The translations under genes were made by a program, and so were the position numbers. A stretch of DNA of 64,000 bases from Nemertoderma westbladi (taxonomy: Eukaryota > Animalia > Xenacoelomorpha), in assembly GCA_032718475.1 (NCBI GenBank), contig JAUCBJ010001123.1:1-64000 (forward strand), read 5' to 3'. The notes beneath the pieces were generated by a model. The model saw only the letters and a list, made by a program, of their open reading frames with translations. It was not told where the DNA came from and did not search any database. This document shows positions 2,578 through 33,268 of this stretch, one piece after another. Every line of letters begins with the position of its first letter. The first letter of the stretch is position 1.

Positions 2578-2655
2578 CTGTTTAGAGTATTTTTATATTT
2601 TAGAAACTGTGATTTTGTATATTTTATAGACTTAAATCCCATTTTCTGGGAGCGG

Positions 2656-5738: not shown

Positions 5739-5938
5739 ATAAACTAATTAATGTCTGTTCGAGAACGGAATATACGGCTATAATACCTTCAGCAAATAAA
5801 TCATGTATAACTACTCCCTACTACTACTATAACTACTACGGCCTACGGCCTCAGTAGTTTAATTATGTAACAGATTAATTTGCTTCAGGTATTATATCCG
5901 TATATTCCGTTCTCGAACAGATAATAATTATAGTTTAT
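5739..5938. mobile_element. Short fold-back element / MITE relic
   Basis: tctgttcgagaacggaatatacggctataatacct is mirrored by aggtattatatccgtatattccgttctcgaacaga around a (cta)n spacer. Confidence 0.65.
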
Positions 5939-6600
5939 TTGGTATTGCTGAATGAAATCATAAAATAATGTGAAAAAATGGATATTTCAGGTTTAAACCA
6001 AGGCTATCGTAATATAAGGCTTGCTCACTACATTCTAGAATACCTCGATCAGCTGATATAAGAAGTCATACTTTTTGGTGTTTTATGATTGTTGTAGGCT
6101 AAAATAACAATATTACGTTATTAACGTAATATTGCGTTATATACGTTATTAAGTTATGTTACACGAGCTATAGAATAGAATAAAATAGATATAGAATATC
6201 AAATTGAAGAAGAAAGTCAATGCATTACAGGGCTTTGTGTCACTTTTGTTTATTAGGCTTGCAATTCGCATAAATATCCCATTAAATACTACTAAATATT
6301 TCAGCAATCTTTGCCGTGTTTTAATTGAAAATGGAGCATCAAGGATAGATATTAGGATAGATGTAGATCGGAAAACTGATTATACTGGGCAAATTTCTTC
6401 AAATTCTTTGCAGCGGTATAGGGTAATGATAATTTGTAAATGATAAGCAGTTTCGTATTATAGTTACTGTATATACGATAGTAACTCAATATCATCCTCG
6501 ATAAATCCTCTTCAAACTTCTTCCAGTCTGCAACTTCGATTTAAAGTACCAGTTTGACCAAGTTCAGAGGTTATGCATGGATTTACACCACTGCGCTGCA

Positions 6601-8545: not shown

Positions 8546-11500
8546 TTTCGGGTTTTAAAACGCTCTAGAGATCCCAACCGAGCATCTTTCGGGTTTAAAC
8601 GCTCTAGAGATCCCAACCGAGCACCTTTCGGGTTTAAACGCTCTAGAGATCCCAACGTAGCACCTTTCGGGTTTAAACGCTCTAGAGATCCCAACCGAGC
8701 ACCTTTCGGGTTTAAACGCTCTAGAGATCCTAACCGAGCACCTTTCGGGTTTAAACGCTCTAGAGATCCCAACCGAGCACCTTTCGGGTTTAAACGCTCT
8801 AGAGATCCTAACCGAGCACCTTTCGGGTTTAAACGCTCTAGAGATCCCAACCGAGCACCTTTCGGGTTTAAACGCTCTAGAGATCCTAACCGAGCACCTT
8901 TCGGGTTTAAACGCTCTAGAGATCCCAACCGAGCACCTTTCGGGTTTAAACGCTCTAGAGATCCCAACCGAGCACCTTTCGGGTTTAAACGCTCTAGAGA
9001 TCCCAACCGAGCACCTTCCGGGTTTAAACGCTCTATAGATCCCAACCGAGCACCTTTCGGGTTTAAACGCTCTAGAGATCCCAACCGAGCACCTTTCGGG
9101 TTTAAACGCTCTAGAGATCCCAACCGAGCACCTTTCGGGTTTAAACGCTCTAGAGATCCTAACCGAGCACCTTTCGGGTTTAAACGCTCTAGAGATCCCA
9201 ACCGAGCACCTTTCGGGTTTAAACGCTCTAGAGATCCCAACCGAGCACCTTTCGGGTTTAAACGCTCTAGAGATCCCAACCGAGCACCTTCCGGGTTTAA
9301 ACGCTCTAGAGATCCCAACCGAGCACCTTTCGGGTTTAAACGCTCTAGAGATCCCAACCGATCACCTTTCGGGTTTAAACGCTCTAGAGATCCCAACCGA
9401 GCACCTTTCGGGTTTAAACGCTCTAGAGATCCCAACCGAGCACCTTTCGGGTTTAAACGCTCTAGAGATCCCAACCGAGCACCTTTCGGGTTTAAACGCT
9501 CTAGAGATCCCAACCGAGCACCTTTCGGGTTTAAACGCTCTAGAGATCCCAACCGAGCACCTTTCGGGTTTAAACGCTCTAGAGATCCCAACCGAGCACC
9601 TTCCGGGTTTAAACGCTCTAGAGATCCCAACCGAGCACCTTTCGGGTTTAAACGCTCTAGAGATCCCAACCGAGCACCTTTCGGGTTTAAACGCTCTAGA
9701 GATCCCAACCGAGCACCTTTCGGGTTTAAACGCTCTAGAGATCCCAACCGAGCACCTTTCGGGTTTAAACGCTCTAGAGATCCCAACCGAGCACCTTTCG
9801 GGTTTAAATGCTCTAGAGATCCCAACCGAGCACCTTTCGGGTTTAAACGCTCTAGAGATCACAACCGAGCACCTTTCGGGTTTAAACGCTCTAGAGATCC
9901 CAACCGAGCACCTTTCGGGTTTAAACGCTCTAGAGATCACAACCGAGCACCTTTCGGGTTTAAACGCTCTAGAGATCCCAACCGAGCACCTTTCGGGTTT
10001 AAACGCTCTAGAGATCCCAACCGAGCACCTTTCGGGTTTAAACGCTCTAGAGATCCCAACCGAGCACCTTTCGGGTTTAAACGCTCTAGAGATCCCAACC
10101 GAGCACCTTTCGGGTTTAAACACTCTAGAGATCCCAACCGAGCACCTTTCGGGTTTAAACGCTCTAGAGATCCCAACCGAGCACCTTTCGGGTTTAAACG
10201 CTCTATAGATCCCAACCGAGCACCTTTCGGGTTTAAACGCTCTAGAGATCCCAACCTAGCACCTTTCGGGTTTAAACGCTCTAGAGATCCCAACCGAGCA
10301 CCTTTCGGGTTTAAACGCTCTAGAGATCCCAACCGAGCACCTTTCGGGTTTAAACGCTCTAGAGATCCCAACCGAGCACCTTTCGGGTTTAAACGCTCTT
10401 AGAGATCCCAACCGAGCACCTTTCGGGTTTAAACGCTCTAGAGATCCCAACCGAGCACCTTTCGGGTTTAAACGCTCTAGAGATCCCAAAGGAGCACCTT
10501 TTGGGTTTAAACGCTCTATAGATCCCAACCGAGCACCTTTCGGGTTTAAACGCTCTAGAGATCCCAACCGAGCACCTTTCGGGTTTAAACGCTCTAGACA
10601 TCCCAACCGAGCACCTTTCGGGTTTAAACCTCTAGAGATCCCAATCGAGCACCTTTCGGGTTTAAACGCTCTAGAGATCCCAAAGGAGCACTTTTTGGGT
10701 TTAAACGCTCTATAGATCCCAACCGAGCACCTTTCGGGTTTAAACGCTCTAGAGATCCCAACCGAGCACCTTTCGGGTTTAAACGCTCTAGAGATCCCAA
10801 CCGAGCACCTTTCGGGTTTAAACGCTCTAGAGATCCCAACCTAGCACCTTTCGGGTTTAAACGCTCTAGAGATCCCAACCGAGCACCTTTCGGGTTTAAA
10901 TGCTCTAGAGATCCCAACCGAGCACCTTTCGGGTTTAAACGCTCTAGAGATCCCAACCGAGCACCTTTCGGGTTTAAACGCTCTAGAGATCTCAACCGAG
11001 CACCTTTCGGATTTAAACGCTCTAGAGATCCCAACCGAGCACCTTTCGGGTTTAAACGCTCTAGAGATCCCAACCGAACACCTTTCGGGTTTAAACGCTC
11101 TAGAGATCCCAACCGAGCACCTTTCGGGTTTAAACGCTCTAGAGATCCCAACCGAGCACCTTTCGGGTTTAAACGCTCTAGAGATCCCAACCGAGCACCT
11201 TTCGGGTTTAAACGCTCTAGAGATCCCAACCGAGCACCTTTCGGGTTTAAACGCTCTAGAGATCCCAACCGAGCACCTTTCGGGTTTAAACGCTCTAGAG
11301 ATCCCAACCGAGCACCTTTCGGGTTTAAACACTCTAGAGATCCCAACCGAGCACCTTTCGGGTTTAAACGCTCTAGAGATCCCAACCGAGCACCTTTCGG
11401 GTTTAAACGCTCTAGAGATCCCAACCGAGCACCTTTCGGGTTTAAACGCTCTAGAGATCCCAACCGAGCACCTTTCGGGTTTAAACGCTCTAGAGATCCC

Positions 11501-11847
11501 AACCGAGCACCTTTCGGGTTTAAACGTTCTAGAGATCCCAACTGAGCACCTTTCGGGTTTAAACGCTCTAGAGATCCCAACCGAGCACCATTCGGGTTTA
11601 AACGTTCTAGAGATCCCAACCGAGCACCTTTCGGGTTTAAACGCTCTAGAGATCCCAACCGAGCATCTTTCGGGTTTAAACGCTCTAGAGATCCCAACCG
11701 AGCATCTTTCGGGTTTAAACGCTCTAGAGATCCCAACCGAGCACCTTTCGGGTTTAAACGCTCTAGAGATCCCAACGGAGCACCTTTCGGGTTTAAACGC
11801 TCTAGAGATCCCAACCGAGCACCTTTCGGGTTTAAACGCTCTAGAGA
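8546..11847. repeat. 39-bp satellite (~85 units)
   Basis: Unit accgagcacctttcgggtttaaacgctctagagatccca, highly homogeneous; contains the palindromes GTTTAAAC and CTCTAGAG. Confidence 0.98.
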
Positions 11848-14402: not shown

Positions 14403-15055
14403 TCATTAGCAAGTCGTTAGTCATTAGCAAGTCGTTAGACTTCATTACTGTAAGAAAAAAAAGCTACTGGTTACTGGCTACTGACTACTGACTACTGGCT
14501 ACTGACCTAGAGCAAAAACGGCTCTATAACGATTTTGATAAAATTTTCCATGGACCATGAAAATGGATTTCTAAGGGTACTTGTGAAATCGCGGTTTAAA
14601 TTGAAACATCTCAACTTGTTTCATTTCGAAAAATAGCCCCAAAACACCACAATTGCCATAGGCGCAATGATAAAAACACCAGCTGGCACTCATGAAAAAT
14701 GTATAGAGATGGCCTGGTAATGCATTCAATAGGAAGGCCAACCAACAAAGAAGTACTTTCTCTGCCAAGTTTTATTATCACTCTACTCTACAACCCAGTA
14801 AGTAAGCAAACATTAACTGGTTTAGCTGGCTATTACAGTCACAGTTGAATAACTCTTCCCAATACATCCTTGCTATGTTAATTAATTGGCGTGCAAGCTA
14901 AATGACTATTAGTTACAGTGTGTTGGGTTGGCTACTATTGATTGTACTGTACTCTCTTAGTTATACTGTGTGTTGGCTACACAGTGTATTGTACTATGCT
15001 CTCTAGCTCTCATCTAAGTATTGTTTTATTTTAAAATCTTTGTGCCAACATTAAT
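14403..15055 (+). mobile_element. 5' part of a non-autonomous Helentron/DINE-1-like element, apparent host of the BEL insertion
   Basis: Terminal hairpin AAGTC-GTTA-GACTT, then a (ctactgr)n microsatellite, then a body similar to 47830-48200. A matching 3' end lies at 33400-33434. Confidence 0.5.
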
Positions 15056-15182
15056 TATAGAATTATATTCCCTAAATGCCGTGGATTTTCAAAATTTTAT
15101 TTTATTCGAATTAACTTTGTAAAAGATTACTTTGAGTCCTCATTTGTATTTATTATATCTATTGTACGACCTTTAGTCAAGT

Positions 15183-15269
15183 GGTTCAGTAGCTCAGTCG
15201 GTAGAGCGTTGGAAATTATATGTGTAGTAGGTATTGAGTTCGAATCCTAGTAAGTGCGAATTATTTTTT
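15183..15269 (+). promoter_or_regulatory. tRNA-like RNA polymerase III cassette in the 5' LTR (A box, B box, T6 terminator)
   Basis: TAGCTCAGTCGGTAGAGC (15190), GAGTTCGAATCC (15236), TTTTTT (15264-15269); no intact cloverleaf. Confidence 0.65.
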
Positions 15270-15899
15270 GTGCAGAATTTCAACTCATTTAAATTGACCG
15301 CTACAAATTAAATTGCATTTGTTTGTACCTAGATTAACCAATGAGACTGCAGTTATTAGATTGTAACCAATGTCGTGCAAGTTATATATTAGCTGGACCA
15401 ATAGCTATCTTTAAAAACCTGTTAGAACCTATAGAACAATCGAGAATTTTCTCGATTGATTGCAGCACAAATTTGCTATATAAAGGTGCGATTTGTTCAT
15501 TAGTTATCTATCTTTATTCATTCTAATCTTCTGTATTATTCAATATTGTTTATTCTGTCATTAGTTTCGGATTACATTTTGTATTATTATCTGCAATAAA
15601 TTCAGAAATACCGCTATCTGCTTTTCTTTTCACCATGATTCACTACGGTGAACACCTTTAGGAACAGGATGGCCGGCTAGAGATCGGGCCGCAGCAATGA
15701 ACGAGAACATCACGGGAATGTAGACAAGAGACAACCCGCAATACCATCTCAGTTATTCGCCCATCGCCTGAAAGGTTAGACAGCGTTCGACGCCTTGCTA
15801 CCTAAGCGTAAGACCAAAGATCAAAGGTAGAAGTAGTGGCACGCTGTGAGCCTAAAATTGCATCTTAGGGACTGTACTGTCTTGATTCAGGAAAACCCA

Positions 15900-15921
15900 C
15901 AGTAGACCTTCACATTCCTAC
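15900..15921 (+). other. Putative self-primer segment complementary to the PBS position
   Basis: CACATTCCTAC (15911-15921) is the exact reverse complement of 16955-16965; CAGTAGA (15900-15906) can also pair with TTTACTG (16967-16973). Confidence 0.6.
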
Positions 15922-16954
15922 GGGGGAGGGAGAGAGAGCAGGCAGATACTAGTACGCAGATAGGACGTAGGCACACCGGTACGAAGCATACACATTGGTA
16001 GGGTGCAGCAAACTGTACGCCTAACTCTTGCTAAGTGCAGGTGCGTCTGTGACTATTTGCAGTACAACAGTGTCCATTGCATTAGAACTTGTAGGCTAGG
16101 GGGGTTGCTGTGTTTTCACCTGAATTGGGATTGTACCGTTCAGGCGGTAGGGCAGTTTACAACTAGGCGCAAATAAATTGAGGCTATTAGGGATATACTA
16201 ACATCTATCGTGTCCCCGCCAACGCCCTGATAGGAAGTTACCCAGCCTACCTAGGTGACTAAAATTCTAGATAGGACGCCAGGATAGCTATTAGTAACAG
16301 TACGCCTACTGTAGTAAACTAACACATTTCTTCTTAGTATTAGGGGCCTGGTAAATTAAAATTGCCGAATTCTGGGCGTAGCATTAACCTTATGCCTGAA
16401 TTTGAGTCCTGGAAATACGCAAGAGGGGAAGGAACCTTATCATTCGTGAGTATTGGACCTACAAGTTACAAAATTAGAATATTCGTAAAATGCACACCGT
16501 ACCCAGTAATTATATATGTGAAGGAGCAAAACTGCTTTGACTGTTCAGAATTAACACACGCGCGCGTTAGAAATTATTTAAACCTCAAAATATATAAAAT
16601 TAACTTTTGTCCGTACTGTGCTTTGCCCGCTAGTTGGACATCTCCAAATCTCTGCCTCTGTACCTAGCTAGCGTCCCTTTCGCCCAACCATATAAATCAC
16701 ACCGCGGCAAAGTATATGAGCCCTTTAGTCCGTCAGTGAGTCAGCCTGATTTTAGGATTCGCTGCGCGGGATTTTGTTTTATCGAAGTTTGTCTGCTCGT
16801 AGACTGTTTTCTGCCTCAACGGTTATAAGAGATCGATACTGCAATATATTCGCTTACTTAGAGTTTACTGTTTTGGTGAGAAGGTCGGATTTATGATTTG
16901 ATTCACAAACTTTACAGTAGGATATTGCAGGTATTGTTACTGTCTCTTCGAATA

Positions 16955-16973
16955 GTAGGAATGTGTTTTACTG
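16955..16973 (+). promoter_or_regulatory. Non-tRNA primer-binding site
   Basis: GTAGGAATGTG directly abuts the LTR end and lacks the TGG expected of a tRNA PBS. Confidence 0.6.
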
Positions 16974-17765
16974 AACTACGGTTCGGTAGGACTAAAGTTA
17001 TTTGAAAATTTTGTATTTTGAGGTAAAAGTTTGTATTTGATTAGCTAAGTGCTAATTTTTTGAAATAAAATTTGATTTGAACCGCGTGTAAAATATTTTG
17101 GAATTGAATACCGGTGTTTAAAAAGGGTTTAAATACCATATTGTACCGGTACAAAATTTTTCGTAAAAGTAAAACCTAACTCTTTTGTTTTTCAGGATTC
17201 AGAACTCATTTCTAGACTGTAACGGGAGCAAGACCGTGTTTAGCAAGTTTGGGAGATAGATAACTCAACAACTTTGGTTGGGAAAATCGCGCTTCGTCCG
17301 CAACGTTAAAAACGGAAAGGTTCACGTCCGGTTTGTATCTGGGAATCTGTTTTTCTGGAGAATTATTGGAGTGGGTGAGTTTGAAAAGTTGCATAAATAA
17401 GTTAGGCATTACCGTATTAGTTAAAATTATTGTGGGTTCCACTGTCTCAAGTATTTATGCATTCCGTATGATTTCTTTGTTCATTGCTGAATTAGTCTGT
17501 AATTATTGTATTTAATTTACCTTTTGATAACGCATATCGTTATCCGATTTATTTGTTATAAAATTGGCCGCTAGGCTAATTTTATTATATACTTATTCCG
17601 TGACATTTATTTGCTGTAAAATTGGCCGTCTAGGCTAATTTTATCCATCTGCTATAAAATCGGCCGGTAGGCTAATTTTATATGACTGTAATTAGTACCG
17701 TTTAGATATAAATACGGTAAATTTGATACCTTGACACTCACTTTACTTGACTTACAACTACCGAA

Positions 17766-20074
17766 ATGAGTGACAAACAAGACTATACGAAGAATACACC
17801 TACCGACTATGACTCATGTGACGGAGATAAGTCAGCAGCGGAAGAACTACAGGGGAAGACTCGCGAGCCTACCGAACCTACACCGTGTGCGTCACCAGTA
17901 CATCCAACAGGAGTACCGGATGCCGTAGTACGAGGCGACGGCAGGACCGAGGACTTTCTAACTGTTCCGCAACCTAGAAATAGGGAAACGGACATGGTAA
18001 GTTCAGTAGGAAGCCAGGAGAGTGTGGTTAGAAGCGTCGGCGGATACATGGCGCATATTACCAGGAGTATTGGAGAAGGCCAACGCATATTAGACGAGTT
18101 AACCGCTCCGATGTCTCGGTTTGAGTTCTACACCCTCCAGGTGAGAGTACAGAGTAAAGTATATAAGTCCATAGATAACCTAATTGGTCTACAAGATCTA
18201 GCTAGACAGAGACAGGACATGGATACTCAACTTAGAATCCTCGAGAAACTAATGATCGCTAGAGAGAAACTGATTCAGTTTAAGTCGACGATTAGGCAGA
18301 TACAACAGGAACAAGCGGACCAGTTGTTAGGTGAGTCAGTTTCAGACGAATTATTGCAACCCGAGGAAGAACAGGAACTGTACCGACTGGATGGACAATT
18401 GAAACACCTGACGGATCACTTACGTATGTGCGGCGAGGACGTCGGAGATTGGGAAACCGTGCCGGAGGCTACGAGGGAAACTTCGCTCGCACAAATCGAA
18501 CTGGCACCGGGAACACTAAATCAATCACTGGTAAGTATTCGCAGCGAAATTGGCGAGGTGAGTATGGCTACGTCAGAAATTGCTCGACAACAGCAGCTCT
18601 ACAGACAACAACAGGAGATGGAGGAACAAACTCAACTGCTAATGGCACAAGCAGCCGTACAAGAAGAGAAACTACGCGTTGCGAATGTTGCAAGAATCTC
18701 TCATCTGCAAGAACAAGCCGAGTTGGAAGCAGCCGAGATGGAAAGGTTAGAGTTGGACATTGCGCAACAAACGGCGGCAGCGGCAGCGGCCGAGTTAGAG
18801 CGACAAGCGACGGCGGCAGCAGCAACGGCCGAGTTAGAGCGACAAGCGACGGCGGCAGCAGCAGCGGCCGAGTTAGAGCGACAGAGGTTAGTATCAGAAG
18901 CGAGAGCCGAGATGAAAAAACGGCAAATAAAGGCTCAATCAGCTATACGATAAGCGGAGTTCGAGGCGCAACAACAACAGACGGAACAACGCGAGAAGGA
19001 AGTTAAACTTCATTTCGAACTCGGGAAGAAGGCGAGAGAATTAGCCAACGCGAAGGAAGATCTGGATCTACAAGCCCGCGATCGATCGATGAGATCTCGT
19101 GACGGACACGATTTAGACCGGTTAGAGGTAAGACACCGCTAAATTCAGGAACGAATGAAGGAAGGTTCGATAGGAGCACCTGGACGAGAACGACAATTAG
19201 TTAAAGACTTATGTCAAAGATTTCCTAAAGTAACTCCTATGTTTGCACCGGTTACGACTAAGGAACCTGTTTCGATTGCTGGTAGTAGTAATATTTCTCC
19301 TATCCATGGTGCGATGGAACACAGGTTTGTTATTCCGGACAAGTTTACACCGCCAAGAGCAACGTCATCGCCTATTCCGAAAGTCAAGGTAAGTAACCCG
19401 CCGATTACAGATCGTAGTAGTTTATTAGTCGAACCTGTATTACTGACGACTAAACAGGTGAGTCCACCGTCGACACCTAAACCCGTTACACACTACGCTT
19501 ACCCAATGACGTTTCGACCTACAAGGCCAGTTGATTCAAATGCTGTCATTCGCCCACCGGTTCAGTTTACATCGCAATCTACGACTTCGAGGAAGACTTG
19601 TGAGCCTACCGAACAACGGAGACCAGTGGATACGCGACCGTTCAACCAGTTTACATCGCAATCTACGACTTCGAGGAAGACTTGTGAGCCTACCGAACAA
19701 CGGAGACCAGTGGACGATGTTCCAAAGCGAAACGTTAGAATTCGTACGACGCAACGGACGCGAGCACGTCGACCACCATATCCAGATGATAGTAGTACTT
19801 CGAGCGAATCGGATTACCCGAAACGCGAGGTATTTAGAACAGGGGCGGCCGATGAATACAAACGCGAGCGTTCAGACAACTCCTTTGCAGACAATCCTCC
19901 ACAAACGGACACGTTCGCAAGGATTGCCCAAATACCGACACTTGTCCATCCTGTGGACGCAACCACGACGGTCTGCTCCACACAGACAGCCACACGCCGA
20001 CAAAACGCTTCGCCAGGGAACACCCGGAAGCAGCAGCGAAATGTAATGCGGCCTACAAAAATCGAGAATCGAAA
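17766..20074 (+). pseudogene. gag: Disrupted gag (coiled-coil N-terminus; two in-frame TAA; probable internal deletion with frameshift)
   Basis: ORFs 17766-18953 and 19155-20078 share one frame, with TAA at 18951 and 19140. BEL-type knuckles LCRQSSTNGHVRKDC and CPSCGRNHDGLLH (19883-19981) lie in the pol frame, which opens at 19856. Confidence 0.8.
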
Positions 20075-23000
20075 ATGACTCCGACCTTTGTGACACATAT
20101 AAAGGATTGCTTCTCAGAACAATCCGGATCGTCGGACGAAGAGTCAGAAGACGACGACGTATATTCTGATGGAGATGAACAACCATCGATCGCGCTTCTG
20201 ACGACTGACCAACTAAAGGGATTCAGTGTAATTCCGATTAAGATTACTGGCACAAAGGGGAGCAAGAGAATCTACGCTATCCTGGATTCAGCCTCATCTC
20301 ACAGCTATGTGGATGAGCAGATAGCTGATGTAGTGACGGATCTCAAACAAGGTAAGCGCGTCAGCTATACCGTAAGTAGTATGCACGGACAACGTGCAAT
20401 ACCAGTGACACGAGTTAAGTTAAACTTAGACACTCTTCTTCCAAAATCGCAACACAGCGAAAAGGAGAGGTCTTTGTTACCCTTCAAGGATTTGACTTTT
20501 GCGGCCACAAAAGACTTTATTAACCTACTAGGTCCTGTCCCAGAACAATCCTTGGAGGACCGTAAGTATTTCAGACACCTTGGTGTACCTGAATGTCCTG
20601 TCAATTATAGATCGGTAGCAATGCTGATCGGGACGGACCAATTCAATCTACATCAAGTGTGGGAAACCAGACCATCGGCAGTCGTAGCGGGAAACGCATA
20701 CGCCTGTAGAACGCCGATAGGGTGGTATACTCGAGCGCCTGTGCGCACACTGGACATAAGTGACGAGGAAGACGATGTACAAAGTACATGTAGTTTATTA
20801 ACTACAAATTCAATTCATTCCTTTTCACATGACGTGGACTATACTACCTTACATACAAGACATGACAGACGTGTGACTAGTATGATAAGTCACAAGGAGC
20901 AGCTAATCCACCAGGTGAGTTTAGAACTTGGGGAGAAGACGAGTCAGCTAGAGATTCCATCGACGACAGATGATAACGCCGGAAGGCTTGCGAGTCTACC
21001 TACCCCAACAACCTCAACAATGCCCGTCGATATCGATGATGACGCGTTGAGAAATCATCAAGTGGAACAAGCTGCATTGGACAAAGAATTAACGGAGAAG
21101 ACTATCAGGTGGTTAGAACAAGATACAGCTGAACCTGGTAGCTACGAACCATGTATGTCGCAACAGGAGAAACAATCTTTGAGGATCATGGAAGATACTA
21201 TCCGCCAGACGAAAGACGGACATTATGAGGTAGGGATGTTATGGCGTAGCCAAAGTCCTAAACTCATAAATAACTACCCGCTAGCTTTAAGACGTCTACA
21301 CTCAATACGACAACGTCTATTAAAGGACGAGAAAGCCCATCTGCAGTACAACACTCAGATGGAGACGTATTTGACCAAGGGATACGCTATCCGGATGACT
21401 AACCCAGAGGTGACTGACCAGACGTACTACTTGCCACATCACTTCGTGAGACACCCCGACAAACCAGACAAAGTACGTGTAGTCAATGACTGTGCGGCTC
21501 TGTTTGAGGGAATGTCCCTCAATAGCGAATTGATGGATGGACCAAACATGAATAATTATCTTATGGGGGTGATTATGCGCTTCCGTCAGCGTCAAGTAGC
21601 CTTTACTTGTGACGTAGAAGCTATGTTTCACCAAGTGAGAGCGTTAGAGCGAGACAGAGACAGTTTGAGGTTCCTCTGGTACCCGGAAGGAGACTTAAGT
21701 CTACCACCGGCGACTTACCAAATGCAAGTTCGCGTTTTCGGTGCCAGAGACAGCCCAAACTGTACGATGTACGCCCTAAAACAAGCCGCTAGGGATCAGA
21801 AACATTTATATGACCCAGAGATAATTAGGATTGTGGAGCGTGACTTTTACGTCGACGACGGTTTACAGAGTTGCGACAAAGTAGAACGTGCTACAACAGT
21901 AGCACTACAATTACGGGACTGCTTAGCGGGCGGAGGTTTTAACCTCACCAAATTCGCCTCAAACAGTGCCGAATTAGTAGACTCATTCGGAACGACTGAG
22001 CGTGGAGGTGGTGACATAGACCTAGAGTTCGAACCACTACCGACGACCAAGGTGTTGGGGCTCTTTTGGGACCCAAACACGGACAACTTTCGAGTGAAGG
22101 TGAGACTGGACAGTCAAGAAAACACACTGACAAAGAGATCATGCTTGTCAAAATTGAGCCGATTGTTCGATCCATTAGGATTCATCAGTCCAATAATACT
22201 GCAAGCCCGCATTTATATGCGCAGTATTTGGAAGGATGGACTGACATGGGACGAGCCGATCTCATCAGACCAAGTGGACTTATGGAAGACCTGGGAGGCA
22301 GAATTATCTTCGCTAGAGGATTATTCCATACCCAGAGTCTACTTTCCATTACAAACAACATTTCCTGACAACTTGGAATTACATTGTTTTTCTGACGCCA
22401 GTGACAACGGTTTTGGTGTGGCAGCGTACTTGCGCAGACAAGTAGACTCAGAAGAATTCGATGTTTCGCTCATTACTTCTAAGGCAAAAACAATGCCTAC
22501 TAAGTATATGACGACACCACGAGCTGAGCTACAAGCCGCAACCCTGTCAACCACCATCGTGAACCTTATACAGACAGAACTACAGTCAAGTTTACAGATA
22601 TTTTATTGGACTGACGCGACGTTGGTTTTATTTTACATAAACAACGACACACTTGAATTCAAGACATTCGTAGCTAACCGTCGCGCGGAAATTCTAGACC
22701 GTTCAATAAAGGAAGATTGGCGACATTGTCCCGGACCACAAAACCCAGCCGATATTGCGTCGCGAGGAATGATGCCTGAGGAATTCTGTAAACCGGAAAA
22801 CAAAGAATTTTGGCAACACGGACCTCAATTCTTACAAAGATCAACACTAAATTGGCCACCACTATATGACAACAAGTCTAACACTATCCCTAAGGATGCC
22901 GAAATCAAGAAACCAAAAAAGGGGAAGGCAAAGAAAAGGACGACGGCGGCAAAACTCAAAAAAAAACCGAAGGCGAAATGGAAGGATATAACTTCAAAGG

Positions 23001-25435
23001 TCAAGAGAGGAAGACTTGCGAGCCTTTCTACACCAGACATATCGCCAGACGTATCGCCAGACACGTTTCTATACGGTCAACCAGACGTTTTGCCAGACAT
23101 GTCACAAAATGTTCTACCAGACACTAGTGACATACTGACAAATAGTAAAGCCGCAGTTTCCCTATTGGAGCGGCCTTCTGTTGACAAACAACCAGACGCA
23201 TTACTAGACAGTCGACTAGACATTTTGTCAGAAACATCACAAAATGTTCTACCAGACACTAGTAACATATTGACAAACAGTAAAGCCGCAGTTTCCCTAT
23301 TGGAGCGGCCTTCTATTGACAAACAGCCAGACACGTTACCAGACGTATCGCCAGACACGTTACTAGACGGTCAACCAGACGTTTTGCCAGACACGTCACT
23401 AGATGTTTCGCCGGATGTTCCGCGAAACATTTTACCAGACATGTCACAAAATGATATACCAGACACTAGTAACATATTGACAAACAATAAAGCCGCAGTT
23501 TCCCTATTGGAGCGGCCTTCTATTGACAAACTACCAATTTTGACGCACTTGAGCAACCATAAGCACGGTGAAACCTCATGTATTACAGATGTGGGTAGTA
23601 CCTACGCTAATGTAAATACAGGTGTTACTCTGCGCTCAAGAGACATACCAAACTTGCAACCTATGGTGAGACCCGGGATTAATATCGGCAGAAAAATAAG
23701 TTTACCGAAACCCACTGACCCCATAGAGTTCAAACCACCATTAACGATCGACTTACAAAGTACTGACAATCAAGGTAAGAAGACGAAGAAGGACAAATTA
23801 CTTGTAGACCCGGACGGATCAACAGTCAACAAGGGAATACTTACCGGCGGACCCGTGGGCCCTTCTAGTAAATCAAAACCTTCCAAAATCTCCATTGACT
23901 TACCTGATGACGTCACAAATACTTACGTCGACCGTATTGTAAACCTAACAGATTCTTGGACAAACGCTTGCCGAAAATTAGCGTGGATTGTACGTTTTGT
24001 ACAATACGTTAAAGGCAAACGAGACTTTACACGTCGACTTACATTGACTGAGATTGACAGGTGTGAGATTAAATTAATTCGCCATTACCAACTGCGATAT
24101 TTCGCGCGCGAATTCACATCTATAAATCAAGGTCAACCAATCAAGTCGTCACCAATATTGAGTTGGAGTCCGATAATTTATAATGGCTTAATTTGTCATA
24201 AATCTCGGCTTCAAAACATTGACTTTAACACAAACTTTAGATACCCAATAATAATACCGCAACATCATGAACTACAACGTGCAATGATACTGGACGCACA
24301 TTTACATCTGAAACACGCTGGAAGACACCACTGTCTTTCCTACTTACGTACAAGATTTGTATTAATTAGACCCAGTAAAGCGTTAAGTTCAGTGACACGT
24401 ACGTGTATTATTTGTAAAAAGGTACACTCTAGAATAGGTACCCAAGAAATGAGTGAACTTCCACAAGCACGACTTCAAGCATTCAGACCACCTTTTACAG
24501 AGACTGGAATTGATTGCTTTGGTCCCATACATACGAAACGTGGACGTATACTAGTAAAACGCTGGGGACTGATTTTCACATGTATGTCCAGTAGGGCAGT
24601 TCATATTGAACGTGTGATGGATCTTTCCACCAACGCGTTTATACTAGCATTGCGGCGATTTATCGCTAGACGCGGACTAGTGAAATGCTTGTACTCAGAC
24701 CAAGGGACAAACTTTGTTGGTGCTCGAAATGAGATTGCTAGAGCCTTTAAGAAATTAGATCATGATCAAATCTCGAACGAACTACAACCTCACAAGATTG
24801 TTTGGAAGTTTAATCCTCCAGATAGTCCTTGGAGAGGCGGAGTCTGGGAGAGATTGATTAGATCTATCAAAACGGCAATGGCAAAGGTCATTCCAGTAAA
24901 CCACATATTAACAGACGACCAACTGACAACATTGTTTGTTGAAATCGAGGCAATACTAAATACTAGACCAATAGTATTAGTACCCGATGACAAACAATCC
25001 CAGTTTGCATTAACACCTGCACACCTGCTAATGCAGGCACCGACAACATTGACGCCTATTTCAATTCCAACAGAAAGCGATAGCTACGGTAGAAAAGCGT
25101 GGAAAATCACGCAACTACTAGCTAACAAATTCTGGGAAATATGGCAAAACCATTATTTGCCCTCTATTTCTGCCAGAACAACTTGGTACAATAACACCCG
25201 CGCATTAAAACCGGGAGATCACGTGCTGTTAGCGGAAGTGAATCTAAAAAGACGCTTCTGGATAACAGGTGTAATTTTAGCCACACATCCATCTATGGAT
25301 GGAGTGACAAGAACTGTGACAGTACGGACAATTGACGGTCGTACAGTAGACAGACCGACTCAACGTCTCGTACTTCTTGAAGAGACTCGTAACGAGTCTG
25401 GAGACTACAAATCTCCACCTAATACTAGTAAATAA
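20075..25435 (+). CDS. pol: BEL/Pao Pol polyprotein (protease, RT, RNase H, integrase); frame open from 19856
   Basis: ILDSAS protease; FYVDD RT; HCFSDAS Pao RNase H; HLHLKH...CIIC Zn finger; GIDCFG / SDQGTNF / GGVWERLI DDE core; C-terminal GVTRTVTV...RPTQRL. Confidence 0.96.
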   Translation: MTPTFVTHIKDCFSEQSGSSDEESEDDDVYSDGDEQPSIALLTTDQLKGFSVIPIKITGTKGSKRIYAILDSASSHSYVDEQIADVVTDLKQGKRVSYTVSSMHGQRAIPVTRVKLNLDTLLPKSQHSEKERSLLPFKDLTFAATKDFINLLGPVPEQSLEDRKYFRHLGVPECPVNYRSVAMLIGTDQFNLHQVWETRPSAVVAGNAYACRTPIGWYTRAPVRTLDISDEEDDVQSTCSLLTTNSIHSFSHDVDYTTLHTRHDRRVTSMISHKEQLIHQVSLELGEKTSQLEIPSTTDDNAGRLASLPTPTTSTMPVDIDDDALRNHQVEQAALDKELTEKTIRWLEQDTAEPGSYEPCMSQQEKQSLRIMEDTIRQTKDGHYEVGMLWRSQSPKLINNYPLALRRLHSIRQRLLKDEKAHLQYNTQMETYLTKGYAIRMTNPEVTDQTYYLPHHFVRHPDKPDKVRVVNDCAALFEGMSLNSELMDGPNMNNYLMGVIMRFRQRQVAFTCDVEAMFHQVRALERDRDSLRFLWYPEGDLSLPPATYQMQVRVFGARDSPNCTMYALKQAARDQKHLYDPEIIRIVERDFYVDDGLQSCDKVERATTVALQLRDCLAGGGFNLTKFASNSAELVDSFGTTERGGGDIDLEFEPLPTTKVLGLFWDPNTDNFRVKVRLDSQENTLTKRSCLSKLSRLFDPLGFISPIILQARIYMRSIWKDGLTWDEPISSDQVDLWKTWEAELSSLEDYSIPRVYFPLQTTFPDNLELHCFSDASDNGFGVAAYLRRQVDSEEFDVSLITSKAKTMPTKYMTTPRAELQAATLSTTIVNLIQTELQSSLQIFYWTDATLVLFYINNDTLEFKTFVANRRAEILDRSIKEDWRHCPGPQNPADIASRGMMPEEFCKPENKEFWQHGPQFLQRSTLNWPPLYDNKSNTIPKDAEIKKPKKGKAKKRTTAAKLKKKPKAKWKDITSKVKRGRLASLSTPDISPDVSPDTFLYGQPDVLPDMSQNVLPDTSDILTNSKAAVSLLERPSVDKQPDALLDSRLDILSETSQNVLPDTSNILTNSKAAVSLLERPSIDKQPDTLPDVSPDTLLDGQPDVLPDTSLDVSPDVPRNILPDMSQNDIPDTSNILTNNKAAVSLLERPSIDKLPILTHLSNHKHGETSCITDVGSTYANVNTGVTLRSRDIPNLQPMVRPGINIGRKISLPKPTDPIEFKPPLTIDLQSTDNQGKKTKKDKLLVDPDGSTVNKGILTGGPVGPSSKSKPSKISIDLPDDVTNTYVDRIVNLTDSWTNACRKLAWIVRFVQYVKGKRDFTRRLTLTEIDRCEIKLIRHYQLRYFAREFTSINQGQPIKSSPILSWSPIIYNGLICHKSRLQNIDFNTNFRYPIIIPQHHELQRAMILDAHLHLKHAGRHHCLSYLRTRFVLIRPSKALSSVTRTCIICKKVHSRIGTQEMSELPQARLQAFRPPFTETGIDCFGPIHTKRGRILVKRWGLIFTCMSSRAVHIERVMDLSTNAFILALRRFIARRGLVKCLYSDQGTNFVGARNEIARAFKKLDHDQISNELQPHKIVWKFNPPDSPWRGGVWERLIRSIKTAMAKVIPVNHILTDDQLTTLFVEIEAILNTRPIVLVPDDKQSQFALTPAHLLMQAPTTLTPISIPTESDSYGRKAWKITQLLANKFWEIWQNHYLPSISARTTWYNNTRALKPGDHVLLAEVNLKRRFWITGVILATHPSMDGVTRTVTVRTIDGRTVDRPTQRLVLLEETRNESGDYKSPPNTSK

Positions 25436-26095
25436 TTAGGAGTTTACAAATAGATTTCCACGTACCTGTACACCGTAGTAAGGACAGCGGTAGAATTCCA
25501 TTGTCTTTATATGTGAACATTGAGGGTGGTACCCTTATGTGTCACATAGGAGCGGGATTTGTAGGTATAAGAAATGGAATTCTACTTGGAACTCACAATA
25601 TTGAGACATTTTCGAAATTTTAGACAATCCATTTGGATTTGAACATTTTTTAAAAATTTTCTCCAGTGAATAGATTTCAGGGTACAGTCGGGTGGAACTT
25701 AAAATTAGAGAAACAAGAGAGGAAGACTTGCGAGCCTTTCTTAAAATTTTAATTAAATTTTACACGGTCTTGTTTCAATAAGTTACGTCAAAATAGACTC
25801 CCCTATATTTATTACTAATTCTTGACTGCTTATTTTCTGATAATAGTTTGGGATCAAAAAGTGAGTATTTTAGACTCACAGCCAGTTTAGCCCAAATTCG
25901 TTTTTATTTCGGCAAAAAATTTTAGATAAGAAGCAGCGTGTCATTAAAGAAACCCTAGATCTTAGGCTATGGGTAGTAGGTTAGAGCGTTGTCGAGCCCA
26001 AAGGGCAGACGAAACTCTCACGTCTCCTCACAACTAACTACAAACTCTGTTGTATTCCCTCTAGTAGTAATGATTATGTAACTACACCCCTAATT

Positions 26096-26737
26096 ATGGA
26101 GAAAGGGATACAAGGAGAGCCGAGATGGGGATATGATATCCAAGAGGAGGCAGCAGCGCCATTCGAAAGATTTGGAGCCAAGGACTACACTATATTCGGT
26201 ATAAAGGAATTATCGGAAAGTACAGCGAAACTCGCGAGAACTAAATATGACTCAAATGTATTAAAGAGAAGGCAAAACGCATTAAACGAAAGAATCGAAA
26301 GTTTGCGCAAAACCTTCAATGAACTTTACCCGTACGACGCTTTGTGTGATACGGGAGACATTAGCGAAGACCCCGATACTGAAATTAGTCGTTTGTATCA
26401 TACCATGCAATACCTAAAGGCGCACGAACCTATGCCCGCGGTACGCGATGAATTCGATGGAATGCATCTTTACAGACGAACTCGAGGGGACGATAGAGAA
26501 ACCAAGGAAGCATTTTCAGTTTATAAACTTTATTATCAATGCGGTTCTTGTATGCGCGAACAACGAAATGCGATTCCGATGCGTTTGAATAAGGAAAATC
26601 CCGAACCGATATTGGCGAGGTGTTCGAACCATCAACAACTATGTTACCCTATGAAGGCGAACGTATCGTGGAGATTACGGATGAATCACGGCAGACGCGC
26701 GCGCCTATCGGTCACCTTGGTGATGATTTCGAAGTAA
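26096..26737 (+). CDS. Accessory ORF A, unknown function (coiled-coil plus CxxC...CxxH motif)
   Basis: 213-aa ATG ORF inside the element after pol; LKRRQNALNERIESLRK; CGSC...CSNH. Confidence 0.55.
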   Translation: MEKGIQGEPRWGYDIQEEAAAPFERFGAKDYTIFGIKELSESTAKLARTKYDSNVLKRRQNALNERIESLRKTFNELYPYDALCDTGDISEDPDTEISRLYHTMQYLKAHEPMPAVRDEFDGMHLYRRTRGDDRETKEAFSVYKLYYQCGSCMREQRNAIPMRLNKENPEPILARCSNHQQLCYPMKANVSWRLRMNHGRRARLSVTLVMISK

Positions 26738-28104
26738 CTACTACGATCACTGACGATCCTTTAGAGGAACTTCTTGAGATAGAAAGGAACCTCCCGAAGA
26801 AATCTCAGACGGAGATTCGACAACTTGAAGCAACAGATGCTATAGTTTGTATACAACCTTCAGAAACCTACCAACCCATAGATCCAGATGATTACGATTA
26901 TAGTGTGGGAGGAAGCACTCGACCAATTGGAGATCTTATATATGAACGAGTGTGGTACCCTGCCAATACGATGTGTGGTAAATGTGGCGTCGCTGGACAT
27001 CATATGACAAAGTGCAGTGGAAAGCACATTACTACGACTCAGCTAATCTGTGGATGGTGTGGAGATCAAGGGTCTCATACCTTTTATACTTGCTGGAGAT
27101 TTATGGCTCAATGTACTTATTGCAATATAAAGGGACATCGAGCATCTGAATGCCAACTAAGAGACATACCTTATGAACACGAATCTGTAAAACTCGTGAG
27201 AAAATTATTCGATGAGTGGGAAGATTTAGCCGACGAACATGTATCGGCACAAAGAAGACGGTTTCCGATGAGGGCGCATCTTGGATTTTGGGCGGTAAAT
27301 CACCAGACGATGATGTCGGAAGGATATATCTCCGCTATGCCCCAATATGACGAACTTATCGAGGTTGTCGATATTTTGCCCCACGACAGTGGATTCCGAG
27401 TAGTGCGCGAGTATCTACTGCAGATTCACCCAGATAACAAAAACACGTGGAATTTTCAGAAAGTCGTTAATCGCATTACGTATGGTGAATTCGATCGTTT
27501 CCGAAATGAAAAGCGGAACAAAGGAGCTTGGTTAACCGTTGCATGGGCGTACCGAGCCGCGTTTTACCACAAACGTATACGAGCGAGCGTATTCGAGGAA
27601 GAGGAGGTCCTAGAGGCGACAAATATACCAGCCACTCCGGTTGCGCCGTCTGCACGTCACCCTCGGGAGGACGGACAGGGTAGGATCATACGGGTCCAGA
27701 AAGTGGGCCAACAATTAAAGAAAATTATTAATATAGAAGAACGCAAGGGAGTTGAGCCGACTATTCGAATTACTCGGGATACGGTATCGCTTCCTAGAGA
27801 ACCAACAGGAGGATCGGGACATACACCAGCTGATCAAAAGGGGGCGCAAGCTACTCTTGGATCTGCGTCGTCCGCTTCTCGCGCGTTCCCAGACGTTCTA
27901 CCAACTGTAGTGACAACTGATCGGTCACGAGGAATCGGACGAGGATTTGGGATGCCAAATAGACGAATTTGCGAGGAAATAGTCGCACCATCTCTCAACG
28001 TCCAAACGAAACCAGTGACTCGCCCCACAAGTCCCATATCGCGAGCAAAGTCACCTGTGCGCAGTTTTCGAGGACGCGGCAGGGCTCGATCAACAAAACT
28101 ATAA
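26641..28104 (+). CDS. Accessory ORF B: triple CCHC zinc-knuckle nucleic-acid-binding protein
   Basis: Intact frame (first ATG 26641; track start 26620). CGKCGVAGHHMTKC, CGWCGDQGSHTFYTC, CTYCNIKGHRASEC; RG-rich basic tail; homologous to 1129-2577. Confidence 0.85.
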   Translation: MLPYEGERIVEITDESRQTRAPIGHLGDDFEVTTTITDDPLEELLEIERNLPKKSQTEIRQLEATDAIVCIQPSETYQPIDPDDYDYSVGGSTRPIGDLIYERVWYPANTMCGKCGVAGHHMTKCSGKHITTTQLICGWCGDQGSHTFYTCWRFMAQCTYCNIKGHRASECQLRDIPYEHESVKLVRKLFDEWEDLADEHVSAQRRRFPMRAHLGFWAVNHQTMMSEGYISAMPQYDELIEVVDILPHDSGFRVVREYLLQIHPDNKNTWNFQKVVNRITYGEFDRFRNEKRNKGAWLTVAWAYRAAFYHKRIRASVFEEEEVLEATNIPATPVAPSARHPREDGQGRIIRVQKVGQQLKKIINIEERKGVEPTIRITRDTVSLPREPTGGSGHTPADQKGAQATLGSASSASRAFPDVLPTVVTTDRSRGIGRGFGMPNRRICEEIVAPSLNVQTKPVTRPTSPISRAKSPVRSFRGRGRARSTKL

Positions 28105-28904: not shown

Positions 28905-28911
28905 GGAGCGG
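28905..28911 (+). promoter_or_regulatory. Short PPT-position motif GGAGCGG
   Basis: Abuts the 3' LTR; the same motif precedes the family A LTR (2649-2655). Confidence 0.6.
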
Positions 28912-30810
28912 TATAGAATTATATTCCCTAAATGCCGTGGATTTTCAAAATTTTATTTTATTCGAATTAACTTTGTAAAAGATTACTTTGAGTCCTCATT
29001 TGTATTTATTATATCTATTGTACGACCTTTAGTCAAGTGGTTCAGTAGCTCAGTCGGTAGAGCGTTGGAAATTATATGTGTAGTAGGTATTGAGTTCGAA
29101 TCCTAGTAAGTGCGAATTATTTTTTGTGCAGAATTTCAACTCATTTAAATTGACCGCTACAAATTAAATTGCATTTGTTTGTACCTAGATTAACCAATGA
29201 GACTGCAGTTATTAGATTGTAACCAATGTCGTGCAAGTTATATATTAGCTGGACCAATAGCTATCTTTAAAAACCTGTTAGAACCTATAGAACAATCGAG
29301 AATTTTCTCGATTGATTGCAGCACAAATTTGCTATATAAAGGTGCGATTTGTTCATTAGTTATCTATCTTTATTCATTCTAATCTTCTGTATTATTCAAT
29401 ATTGTTTATTCTGTCATTAGTTTCGGATTACATTTTGTATTATTATCTGCAATAAATTCAGAAATACCGCTATATGCTTTTCTTTTCACCATGATTCACT
29501 ACGGTGAACACCTTTAGGAACAGGATGGCCGGCTAGAGATCGGGCCGCAGCAATGAACGAGAACATCACGGGAATGTAGACAAGAGACAACCCGCAATAC
29601 CATCTCAGTTATTCGCCCATCGCCTGAAAGGTTAGACAGCGTTCGACGCCTTGCTACCTAAGCGTAAGACCAAAGATCAAAGGTAGAAGTAGTGGCACGC
29701 TGAGAGCCTAAAATTACATCTTAGGGACTGTACTGTCTTGATTCAGGAAAACCCACAGTAGACCTTCACATTCCTACGGGGGAGGGAGAGAGAGCAGGCA
29801 GATACTAGTACGCAGATAGGACGTAGGCACACCGGTACGAAGCATACACATTGGTAGGGTGCAGCAAACTGTACGCCTAACTCTTGCTAAGTGCAGGTGC
29901 ATCTGTGACTATTTGCAGTACAACAGTGTCCATTGCATTAGAACTTGTAGGCTAGGGGGGTTGCTGTGTTTTCACCTGAATTGGGATTGTACCGTTCAGG
30001 CGGTAGGGCAGTTTACAACTAGGCGCAAATAAATTGAGGCTATTAGGGATATACTAACATCTATCGTGTCCCCGCCAACGCCCTGATAGGAAGTTACCCA
30101 GCCTACCTAGGTGACTAAAATTCTAGATAGGACGCCAGGATAGCTATTAGTAACAGTACGCCTACTGTAGTAAACTAACACATTTCTTCTTAGTATTAGG
30201 GGCCTGGTAAATTAAAATTGCCGAATTCTGGGCGTAGCATTAACCTTATGCCTGAATTTGAGTCCTGGAAATACGCAAGAGGGGAAGGAACCTTATCATT
30301 CGTGAGTATTGGACCTACAAGTTACAAAATTAGAATATTCGTAAAATGCACACCGTACCCAGTAATTATATATGTGAAGGAGCAAAACTGCTTTGACTGT
30401 TCAGAATTAACACACGCGCGCGTTAGAAATTATTTACACCTCAAAATATATAAAATTAACTTTCGTCCTTACTGTGCTTTGCCCGCTAGTTGGACATCTC
30501 CAAATCTCTGCCTCTGTACCTAGCTAGCGTCCCTTTCGCCCAACCATATAAATCACACCGCGGCAAAGTATACGAGCCCTTTAGTCCGTCAGTGAGTCAG
30601 CCTGATTTTAGGATTCGCTGCGCGGGATTTTGTTTTATCGAAGTTTGTCTGCTCGTAGACTGTTTTCTGCCTCAACGGTTATAAGAGATCGATACTGCAA
30701 TATATTCGCTTACTTAGAGTTTACTGTTTTGGTGAGAAGGTCGGATTTATGATTTGATTCACAAACTTTACAGTAGGATATTGCAGGTATTGTTACTGTC
30801 TCTTCGAATA
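28912..30810 (+). repeat. 3' LTR
   Basis: Copy of 15056-16954 followed by TSD TTAAT. Confidence 0.97.
29039..29125 (+). promoter_or_regulatory. tRNA-like Pol III cassette in the 3' LTR
   Basis: Identical to 15183-15269. Confidence 0.65.
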
Positions 30811-33268
30811 TTAATACTATGGAGACTGTTACGCTGTAAGGCTGAATGTTTACTCAGCTTAATAATGATTCTCCATAAGGCTAACTAAATAGTTTGAAAT
30901 ATAAAAATCTGTTATAATATAATAATAATATAATTGTTGTATTTAATTAATATCGTGGTTTACATTGAACAGTGTAAATTGTTAATCGCGGCTTACATTG
31001 AAACATCTGAACTTGTTTTATTTATTACAAAAATATGAACGAATTTGTCTTATCACTTCTTGTGCGCGATTGTATTGAATTCATGATAACTGCTGTTATT
31101 ATTATATTAATCAATTGACACCTCGACTCCTCTCTGACTACTCTATCCGATAGAAAAAAATAATCATTTCGTTAACTGCTCTCTACTATAATCACAACAG
31201 CTTTTATAATTCATTAGAGGATTACAACATAATAATTGTAAAACGGATTCAATTCCCTACACCATGGGACCAGTGGCATTTTACAATTATAGTTGGCGAT
31301 GCGAGATTAACAATAATAATCTCGCCTCATAACCAACTCGGGGGGGGGGGGGCGACACACGCCCTAAGCCAGAGAGAGAGGTGAGAGGTCAAACCACCTC
31401 AGAGGGACAACCCAGCTAGCGAGGCTAGCACCAGGGAGTAACACCTACAGGGAATGGCGATGTGACAATTAGTATATAAGCCAATAGCGGGCAGGGAAGC
31501 ACGTGGGGAAGGACAGGAGGGCATCCATTGGGTACCAAAGGTCACAGTAGCGTAGAGGTAAAACCAATATGTATCAACCATATAGTTACTCTGATTACTG
31601 ATTTACCGGTCAGTTCATTATCACACAGTTGCGGACCGGCATAGTTTTGACCGTCATTTCATATGTGCTGCTGTCATCAGTCATTTCATATGTGCTGCTG
31701 TCGTCATTCATGCTATACTGATTATTGTTACTATACCTGTATACATCTGACTGTGCTATTATATCTGAGATTATTAATACTGAGAAACAAACTCTGTTAT
31801 TTTCCCCAAAGGCCTTCGGCCAAAGATATTAGCTCAGTAGCCCAGCAGCCAAGTGATGCGTACAATCTTACTGTGCTTTGCCCGCTAGTTGGACATCTCC
31901 AAATCTCTGCCTCTGTACCTAGCTAGCGTCCCTTTCGCCCAACCATATAAATCACACCGCGGCAAAGTATACGAGCCCTTTAGTCCGTCAGTGAGTCAGC
32001 CTGATTTTAGGATTCGCTGCGCGGGATTTTGTTTTATCGAAGTTTGTCTGCTCGTAGACTGTTTTCTGCCTCAACGGTTATAAGAGATCGATACTGCAAT
32101 ATATTCGCTTACTTAGAGTTTACTGTTTTGGTGAGAAGGTCGGATTTATGATTTGATTCACAAACTTTACAGTAGGATATTGCAGGTATTGTTACTGTCT
32201 CTTCGAATATTAATACTATGGAGACTGTTACGCTGTAAGGCTGAATGTTTACTCAGCTTAATAATGATTCTCCATAAGGCTAACTAAATAGTTTGAAATA
32301 TAAAAATCTGTTATAATATAATAATAATATAATTGTTGTATTTAATTAATATCGTGGTTTACATTGAACAGTGTAAATTGTTAATCGCGGCTTACATTGA
32401 AACATCTGAACTTGTTTTATTTATTACAAAAATATGAACGAATTTGTCTTATCACTTCTTGTGCGCGATTGTATTGAATTCATGATAACTGCTGTTATTA
32501 TTATATTAATCAATTGACACCTCGACTCCTCTCTGACTACTCTATCCGATAGAAAAAAATAATCATTTCGTTAACTGCTCTCTACTATAATCACAACAGC
32601 TTTTATAATTCATTAGAGGATTACAACATAATAATTGTAAAACGGATTCAATTCCCTACACCATGGGACCAGTGGCATTTTACAATTATAGTTGGCGATG
32701 CGAGATTAACAATAATAATCTCGCCTCATAACCAACTCGGGGGGGGGGGCGACACACGCCCTAAGCCAGAGAGAGAGGTGAGAGGTCAAACCACCTCAGA
32801 GGGACAACCCAGCTAGCGAGGCTAGCACCAGGGAGTAACACCTACAGGGAATGGCGATGTGACAATTAGTATATAAGCCAATAGCGGGCAGGGAAGCACG
32901 TGGGGAAGGACAGGAGGGCATCCATTGGGTACCAAAGGTCACAGTAGCGTAGAGGTAAAACCAATATGTATCAACCATATAGTTACTCTGATTACTGATT
33001 TACCGGTCAGTTCATTATCACACAGTTGCGGACCGGCATAGTTTTGACCGTCATTTCATATGTGCTGCTGTCATCAGTCATTTCATATGTGCTGCTGTCG
33101 TCATTCATGCTATACTGATTATTGTTACTATACCTGTATACATCTGACTGTGCTATTATATCTGAGATTATTAATACTGAGAAACAAACTCTGTTATTTT
33201 CCCCAAAGGCCTTCGGCCAAAGATATTAGCTCAGTAGCCCAGCAGCCAAGTGATGCGTACAATCTTAC
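30468..33268. repeat. Tandem duplication of ~1.4 kb (30468-31866 / 31867-33263)
   Basis: Near-identical copies differing in G-run length; CTTAC microhomology at 30468, 31867 and 33264. Confidence 0.93.

Follow-up and report, generated by a model that had tools for sequence, protein, structure and literature searches.

Self-priming of reverse transcription is described for the Tf1/sushi group, for Tcn1, and for the TAR lineage of LTR retrotransposons (PMC6317226, in excerpt). In Tf1, the primer consists of the RNA's 11 nt at its very 5' end, much as the initial annotation of the locus studied here had stated (∼11 nt); the RNA adopts a pretzel structure with three duplexes and is cut by RNase H (excerpts of bioRxiv 10.1101/2022.12.06.519325, PMC7175516, and PMC5341516). 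In the TAR lineage (Houba as well as Osr-1; Ty1/copia) and the plant Tcn1 clade, lineage-wide self-priming was predicted from complementarity between LTR and primer-binding site (PBS), as we do below; these lineages belong to other superfamilies than BEL/Pao, and the excerpts of PMC6317226 describe no intron-assembled primer for them. A PBS without TGG is also found in the copia elements Osser, Bryco, and Bianca, which use half-tRNA priming, but there the PBS is constant across the lineage and matches a host tRNA (PMC6317226, in excerpt), whereas in the elements studied here it varies with the LTR of each family.

BEL/Pao elements are described as tRNA primed, a premise of the initial annotation that is borne out by the ICTV profile of the Belpaoviridae: as described there, the PBS is 18 nt long and fits host tRNA-Arg or tRNA-Gly, the LTRs measure 0.2 to 1.2 kb, and the total length is 4.2 to 10 kb (PMC8742986, in excerpt). 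Our literature search, which covered mainly the main texts of open-access articles, found no publication on self-priming or on an intron-split primer in BEL/Pao. The main texts of PMC554778, PMC6238403, and PMC3118150 mention neither PBS nor tRNA in a term look-up, and excerpts of PMC3601003, PMC6934838, PMC8220671, and PMC9094657 hold nothing on BEL/Pao priming. Here, we describe a BEL/Pao element in a 64,000-nt stretch of the genome of Nemertoderma westbladi (contig JAUCBJ010001123.1, positions 1 to 64,000; hereafter, the window) that, judging by its sequence, is likely to prime minus-strand DNA synthesis with its own LTR-derived RNA, and we place it among its relatives.

Materials and Methods

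Relatives were fetched with an alignment built from the RT region and 23 of 120 homologues, which gave 94 loci: 80 from metagenomes (the best 80 of 508) and 14 from genome bins. The LTR end could be set by LTR-LTR alignment in 21 of the 94, with those of L072 and L091 leaning on a sister copy, so that together with the window element 22 elements of 16 families were compared; L056 was left out, its repeat being duplicated coding sequence, and the remaining loci have no definable LTR end. Under the strict rule, a PBS passed if it formed at least 10 paired bases with its own LTR at an offset of 0 to 4 nt from the LTR end, with at most one G-U pair and at most one GTRAG..YAG intron of 50 to 600 nt. 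Because this rule was fixed after the pattern had been spotted by eye in LTRs, we also ran a blind scan, independent of where the LTRs end, on those 80 loci that had sufficient sequence upstream, with reversed, complemented, and same-strand sequences as controls. Families with contiguous and intron-bearing partners were placed on a FastTree phylogeny of 105 of 109 sequences.

Results

The BEL/Pao element of the window. Self-comparison of the window revealed a single element of 15.8 kb with paired 1,899-bp LTRs (Table 1). It is young: its LTRs differ by 8 substitutions over 1,899 bp (99.6% identity) and by none in the paired segments described below. The pol frame, with the order PR-RT-RH-IN, matches the Pfam families Peptidase_A17 (E = 2e-42) and DUF5641 (E = 1.8e-20), and it is by pol alone that we assign the element to BEL/Pao (Belpaoviridae). 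Its RT-RNase H region has 1,654 homologues at E ≤ 1e-30, the best being 43 to 44% identical, and among the best 120 the named ones come nearly all from marine invertebrates; the viral contigs searched contain no relative. With the Belpaoviridae (Semotivirus) as profiled by ICTV (PMC8742986, in excerpt), it shares the Pao-type RT/RNase H, the integrase, LTRs, a polypurine tract (PPT), and a short target-site duplication (TSD); it differs in having no such tRNA-type PBS, LTRs of 1.9 kb that end in TA..TA rather than TG..CA, a length of 15.8 kb, and extra zinc-knuckle ORFs.

Table 1. Coordinates of features in and around the window element (positions within the 64,000-nt window)
Feature	Position	Strand	Remarks
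5' target-site duplication TTAAT	15051..15055	+
5' LTR	15056..16954	+	1,899 bp; noncanonical TAT...ATA ends
tRNA-like segment in U3	15183..15269	+	A-box, B-box, and T6 run, boxes as presumed; 3' LTR copy at 29039-29125
Three CCAAT motifs and TATA box	15338..15484	+	Presumed motifs; TATA box at 15477
AATAAA upstream of primer	15595..15600	+	None in the other elements among the 22
GT..AG interval absent from one run X4 contig	15775..17195	+	Takes out primer and PBS
5' arm of extension helix	15900..15906	+
Putative self-primer	15911..15921	+	Predicted 3' end at C15921
Purine run after primer	15922..15938	+
AATAAA downstream of primer	16172..16177	+	251 nt downstream of primer; use inferred
LTR segments predicted to pair with leader 16994-17024	16582..16607	+	Folding prediction; would cross primer helix, pretzel-like
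Candidate primer-binding site	16955..16965	+	No TGG; abuts 5' LTR
3' arm of extension helix	16967..16973	+
gag-like frame	17766..20078	+	In-frame stops at 18951-53 and 19140-42
Open pol frame	19856..25435	+	1,859 aa: zinc knuckles, protease, RT, RNase H (Peptidase_A17), integrase, DUF5641
Two extra ORFs after pol	25985..28104	+	Second has three CCHC-type knuckles
Short polypurine tract	28905..28911	+	Abuts 3' LTR
3' LTR	28912..30810	+	Holds second primer copy at 29767-29777
3' target-site duplication TTAAT	30811..30815	+	5-bp TSD

A Gag with the BEL/Pao capsid region (PF03564) was not found, the gag-like frame giving no Pfam match at all, and tblastn against the 120 homologues gave no match upstream of 19800, so no Gag similarity was detected. 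This frame has two stops and no recognizable capsid region, yet pol is open and the LTRs are nearly identical. Extra ORFs follow pol both here and in a second, truncated element, family A (1120-2577), one of them with three CCHC-type knuckles. The second ORF of the window element is homologous to the family A ORF at 1528-2577 (26% over 198 aa; E = 3e-17); a database search with the extra ORF gave no homologue at E ≤ 1e-3, and its best Atlas score of 0.89 is a lead only. The CCHC-knuckle product is a candidate RNA chaperone for long-range pairing. Family A lies at the window start, with its PBS outside the window, and has a 3' LTR at 2656-3294 with TGTA...TACA ends; the segment 3117-3128 is a candidate primer whose end resembles that of the window element's primer.

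The LTR ends of the window element, TAT (15056-15058) and ATA (16952-16954) instead of TG and CA, have a counterpart in 4 of the 21 relatives, which also end in ATA (L016, L040, L049, and L079); this suggests relaxed end recognition by the integrase. The spacer between PPT and 3' LTR often equals that between 5' LTR and PBS (0/0, 2/2, or 4/4), as in the window element (28905-28912 and 16954-16955), L072, L078, L015, L016, and L022, though not in L050. The box motifs by which the U3 segment was picked out are what we take to be an A-box and a B-box. ARAGORN calls no tRNA anywhere in the window, this segment included, and Rfam does not call it either, its one match in the window (E = 0.64) being at chance level and located elsewhere; as the segment is not complementary to the PBS, we rejected it as the primer. 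Helenus elements reportedly have tRNA-like LTRs, which the segment recalls, here in a pol-coding element.

Elsewhere in the window, a 1.4-kb tandem duplication (30468-31871 and 31867-33268; 99.9% identity) comprises the terminal 343 bp of the LTR together with flanking sequence and is either real or an assembly artifact. Long tandem arrays with units of 39, 30, and 45 bp occupy 8546-11847, 33580-47829, and 50341-58259, respectively, and the minus strand carries an ORF of a non-LTR retrotransposon (58561-62550) in which endonuclease and RT domains are recognized.

A candidate PBS complementary to the element's own LTR. The sequence GTAGGAATGTG starts at the first base past the 5' LTR (16955) and occurs once in the window. 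At 16955-16965, it is the exact reverse complement (11/11) of LTR positions 15911-15921 and again of the copy at 29767 in the 3' LTR. The initial annotation had described this match together with a 7-bp extension containing one G-U pair, the pairing of the primer's 3' C with the first base outside the LTR, and the lack of a tRNA-type TGG; all of these hold at the coordinates given in Table 1, with the match beginning at 16955 and TGG absent from the first 23 nt after the LTR. The purine run is equally present, but GG follows the primer only in the window element and L050 among the 22 elements, which is why we rejected the run as a conserved signal.

In dinucleotide shuffles of the LTR, an anchored match of at least 11 bases arose in 4 of 5,000 (8e-4), close to the chance of ∼5e-4 that had been estimated for the 11-mer, and such matches exist for 12 of 11,925 internal start positions. 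The energy of the 20-nt duplex, −23.5 kcal/mol, was attained by none of 500 shuffles and by 10 of 1,193 internal windows. Since allowing for the 0- to 4-nt spacer seen in relatives would raise the chance ∼5-fold, the match in this single element is suggestive only, and it is the relatives that carry the weight. The exact 22-nt pattern has no match in metagenomes. Among the 40 variants listed (131 further ones lie beyond them), none falls in the primer or PBS, which carries no evidential weight. One divergent contig of sequencing run X4 has its alignment end at 15922, beside the primer.

Self-complementarity across relatives. Under the strict rule, 18 of the 22 elements, from 14 of the 16 families, have a PBS that pairs with at least 10 bases of its own LTR. 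Among the controls, 2 of 448 cross-family pairings and 1 of the 22 windows taken farther downstream did so; in an earlier round, before L040 and L049 were added, the figures were 16/20 versus 1/368 cross-family. Four elements fail (L031, L072, L082, and L088b). Three of these pass under looser splice rules, which give 21/22 versus 15/448 but are post hoc and choose doubtful donors in L087, L089, and L040. The blind junction scan found a match in 32 of 80 loci against 5, 6, and 6 of 80 in the three control orientations, two of the 32 (L031 and L086) resembling chance matches.

The initial annotation had proposed looking for compensatory changes between the PBS and the LTR segment in related families. 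Such both-sided changes do occur between sister families (L087/L089, with three bases; L033/L049; L028/L066; and L073/L006), and the partner's 3' end is AC in 17, AT in 2, and ACT in 3 of the 22 elements. These sequence comparisons indicate that a self-complementary PBS is a trait of a broad BEL/Pao lineage and not of the window element alone. The maintained complementarity supports the idea of self-priming put forward in the initial annotation, though not as an innovation confined to a single element, the feature being common to this lineage and mostly involving an intron-split partner. For the window element, this evidence applies by analogy, because even the closest relatives share only ∼43% identity with it and it forms a long, unsupported branch in the FastTree phylogeny.

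Two observations on the sampled loci may be added. The 14 contigs from bacterial genome bins (L081 to L094) that contain BEL/Pao elements probably represent host contamination. Within the self-complementary BEL/Pao element of L088, another LTR element is nested (1575-6294, minus strand) with an ordinary half-tRNA-type PBS, presumably of the copia kind.

A predicted intron-split primer in most relatives. The partner of the PBS is contiguous in six elements (the window element, L033, L049, L050, L079, and L086), whereas in the other passing elements it spans the exon-exon junction of a predicted GT..AG intron inside the LTR. As only these 6 of 22 pass without removal of an intron, what matches in the rest is the predicted splice junction. 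The 16 predicted LTR introns measure 67 to 451 nt; their donor ranks first among the GTs of its own LTR in 12 of 16 and their acceptor among the top five in 15 of 16, a ranking that is partly circular, GTRAG having been required for most introns. No spliced LTR junction or spliced 5' LTR copy is present in any contig of the 94 loci. The contiguous families are scattered among intron-bearing ones in the tree, which suggests repeated intron loss.

Transcript start, poly(A) signals, and folding. From the arrangement of motifs that we take to be CCAAT and TATA boxes (Table 1), the transcript of the window element would start at ∼15505. One contig of run X4, recorded (as a guess) as a DNA run, skips an interval with GT..AG ends whose acceptor is the top-ranked one in LTR plus leader and whose donor is outside the top ten; this contig is likely a spliced mRNA or a copy of one, and its joint implies that the RNA begins upstream of ∼15750. 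Hence the possibility, raised by the initial annotation, that transcription starts Tf1-like near 15900-15911, with the primer at the RNA 5' end, appears unlikely given both the promoter motifs and the X4 joint, although a second transcript start is conceivable. Unlike in Tf1, the primer is probably internal, ∼400 nt downstream of the transcript start. In relatives with a TATA motif, the primer lies >100 nt downstream of it in L019, L040, L073, L087, and L089, and ∼30 nt in L015. Contig depth in run X4 is higher over U3, contig depth being no measure of expression.

In 17 of the 22 elements, a poly(A)-type signal lies downstream of the primer; the window element has one AATAAA before the primer and another after it. 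The predicted probability of the primer helix is ∼0.95 to 1 for RNAs 15911-17100 and 15890-17000 and ∼0 for RNAs 15500-17100 and 15900-17100. Forcing the helix in an RNA that starts at 15505 costs 7 to 27 kcal/mol, and a predicted local hairpin (16932-43/16952-63) competes with it. Folding models thus disfavor the primer-PBS helix in the long RNA of the window element. The flanking helices in Table 1 are candidates put forward by a folding model that cannot score crossing helices.

Discussion

We propose as the likely explanation that the window element, and in modified form most of the relatives with a definable LTR end, makes its own primer. The RNA would start near 15505, and 15911-21 would anneal to 16955-65, with the 7-bp extension and probably a zinc-knuckle chaperone assisting. 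The cut 3' of C15921 would then be made by a nuclease, which by analogy with Tf1 is most likely the RNase H of the element itself, and RT would copy 16954 back to 15922. The resulting strong-stop DNA (16954-15922) could jump to the corresponding stretch of the 3' copy, a transfer in cis that needs a poly(A) site beyond the primer, for which 16172 is the candidate signal. The PBS would be recopied from the primer in every cycle, which explains the covariation of PBS and LTR. In most relatives, the primer would be put together when the host splices the LTR intron, with the 3' LTR copy left unspliced; the LTR intron persists only if the copy that serves as template escapes splicing. Intron-less families, including that of the window element, would carry the primer ready-made. 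Whether the primer acts in cis we regard as an even call; that a separate short LTR transcript primes the uncut genome in trans seems to us possible but distinctly less probable. Self-priming predicts a defined RNA 3' end at 15921.

More broadly, we lean toward the view that a large part of marine-invertebrate BEL/Pao has swapped tRNA priming for an internal self-primer, assembled by the host spliceosome across an LTR intron. Splicing would mark only one LTR copy, or else a short transcript of the LTR, as the primer, and occasional splicing of the other copy would give rise to intron-less families, such as that of the window element.

Three other explanations deserve consideration. The one that survives best, though we consider it improbable, holds that the pairing is real and selected but serves as a structural switch (in packaging, dimerization, or the marking of spliced and unspliced RNA), with priming from a TGG 10 to 15 nt downstream or by some host RNA. 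Such a TGG is found at offsets 10 to 15 in 7 of 22 elements, the ICTV profile mentions a short noncoding stretch before the PBS (PMC8742986, in excerpt), and complementarity between leader and LTR is raised in general, 8 of the 12 internal matches of at least 11 bases falling within 800 nt of the start of the internal region. Yet in every passing element the match begins at an offset of 0 to 4 nt from the LTR end, the place at which minus-strand synthesis has to start; of the 22 elements, none has a TGG in the 9 nt next to the LTR, and 15, the window element among these, have none in the first 23 nt; L005 lacks the TGG of its sister L073; and the partner's 3' end is conserved.

The primer could instead be a small host RNA, such as a tRNA half or a tRNA fragment, that ends in the same 11 bases; the LTR match would then be a coincidence or a captured copy. 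Copia lineages do include users of half-tRNA priming (PMC6317226, in excerpt), and for a single element the chance of a match is ∼1e-3, or higher with a free offset. This explanation nevertheless strikes us as very unlikely: the PBS sequences of the 16 families are mostly unrelated, and each follows its own LTR with no tRNA in common, while the U3 tRNA-like segment does not match the PBS and Rfam offers nothing beyond its chance-level match elsewhere. Chance or misassembly, for which one might cite a lone 11-mer in a 1.9-kb LTR and the possible assembly origin of the neighboring 1.4-kb duplication, is largely refuted by the presence of the trait in 14 of 16 families, by the coherent LTRs, TSD, and PPT, and by the coverage of this family over its full length in three independent DNA studies, and we give it scarcely any credence.

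Self-priming as we propose it for the window element resembles that of Tf1/Tf2 and other Tf1/sushi elements in the lack of a tRNA site, in the ∼11 nt of LTR-derived RNA complementary to an LTR-adjacent PBS, and in the possible flanking helices. However, (i) Tf1/sushi elements are Ty3/gypsy chromoviruses, whereas the pol of the window element is BEL/Pao, of another superfamily; (ii) the Tf1 primer is the RNA 5' end, while that of the window element would lie inside the RNA, 1,033 nt from the PBS; (iii) the second helix of the window element extends on the 5' side of the primer; and (iv) the primer of most relatives is split by a predicted spliceosomal-type intron (Tf1 as described in the excerpts cited above). 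Because of this superfamily membership, we infer that self-priming arose here independently of Tf1/sushi.

If this reading is correct, BEL/Pao would be the third superfamily of LTR elements to self-prime, and would do so across many families, with a primer that is internal and outside the 5'-end rule of Tf1. Annotation tools that require a tRNA PBS would miss such elements or score them as incomplete. Control through tRNA supply or tRNA fragments would not reach the elements, and in most members, where the primer runs through a splice junction, host splicing would become a licensing step for reverse transcription.
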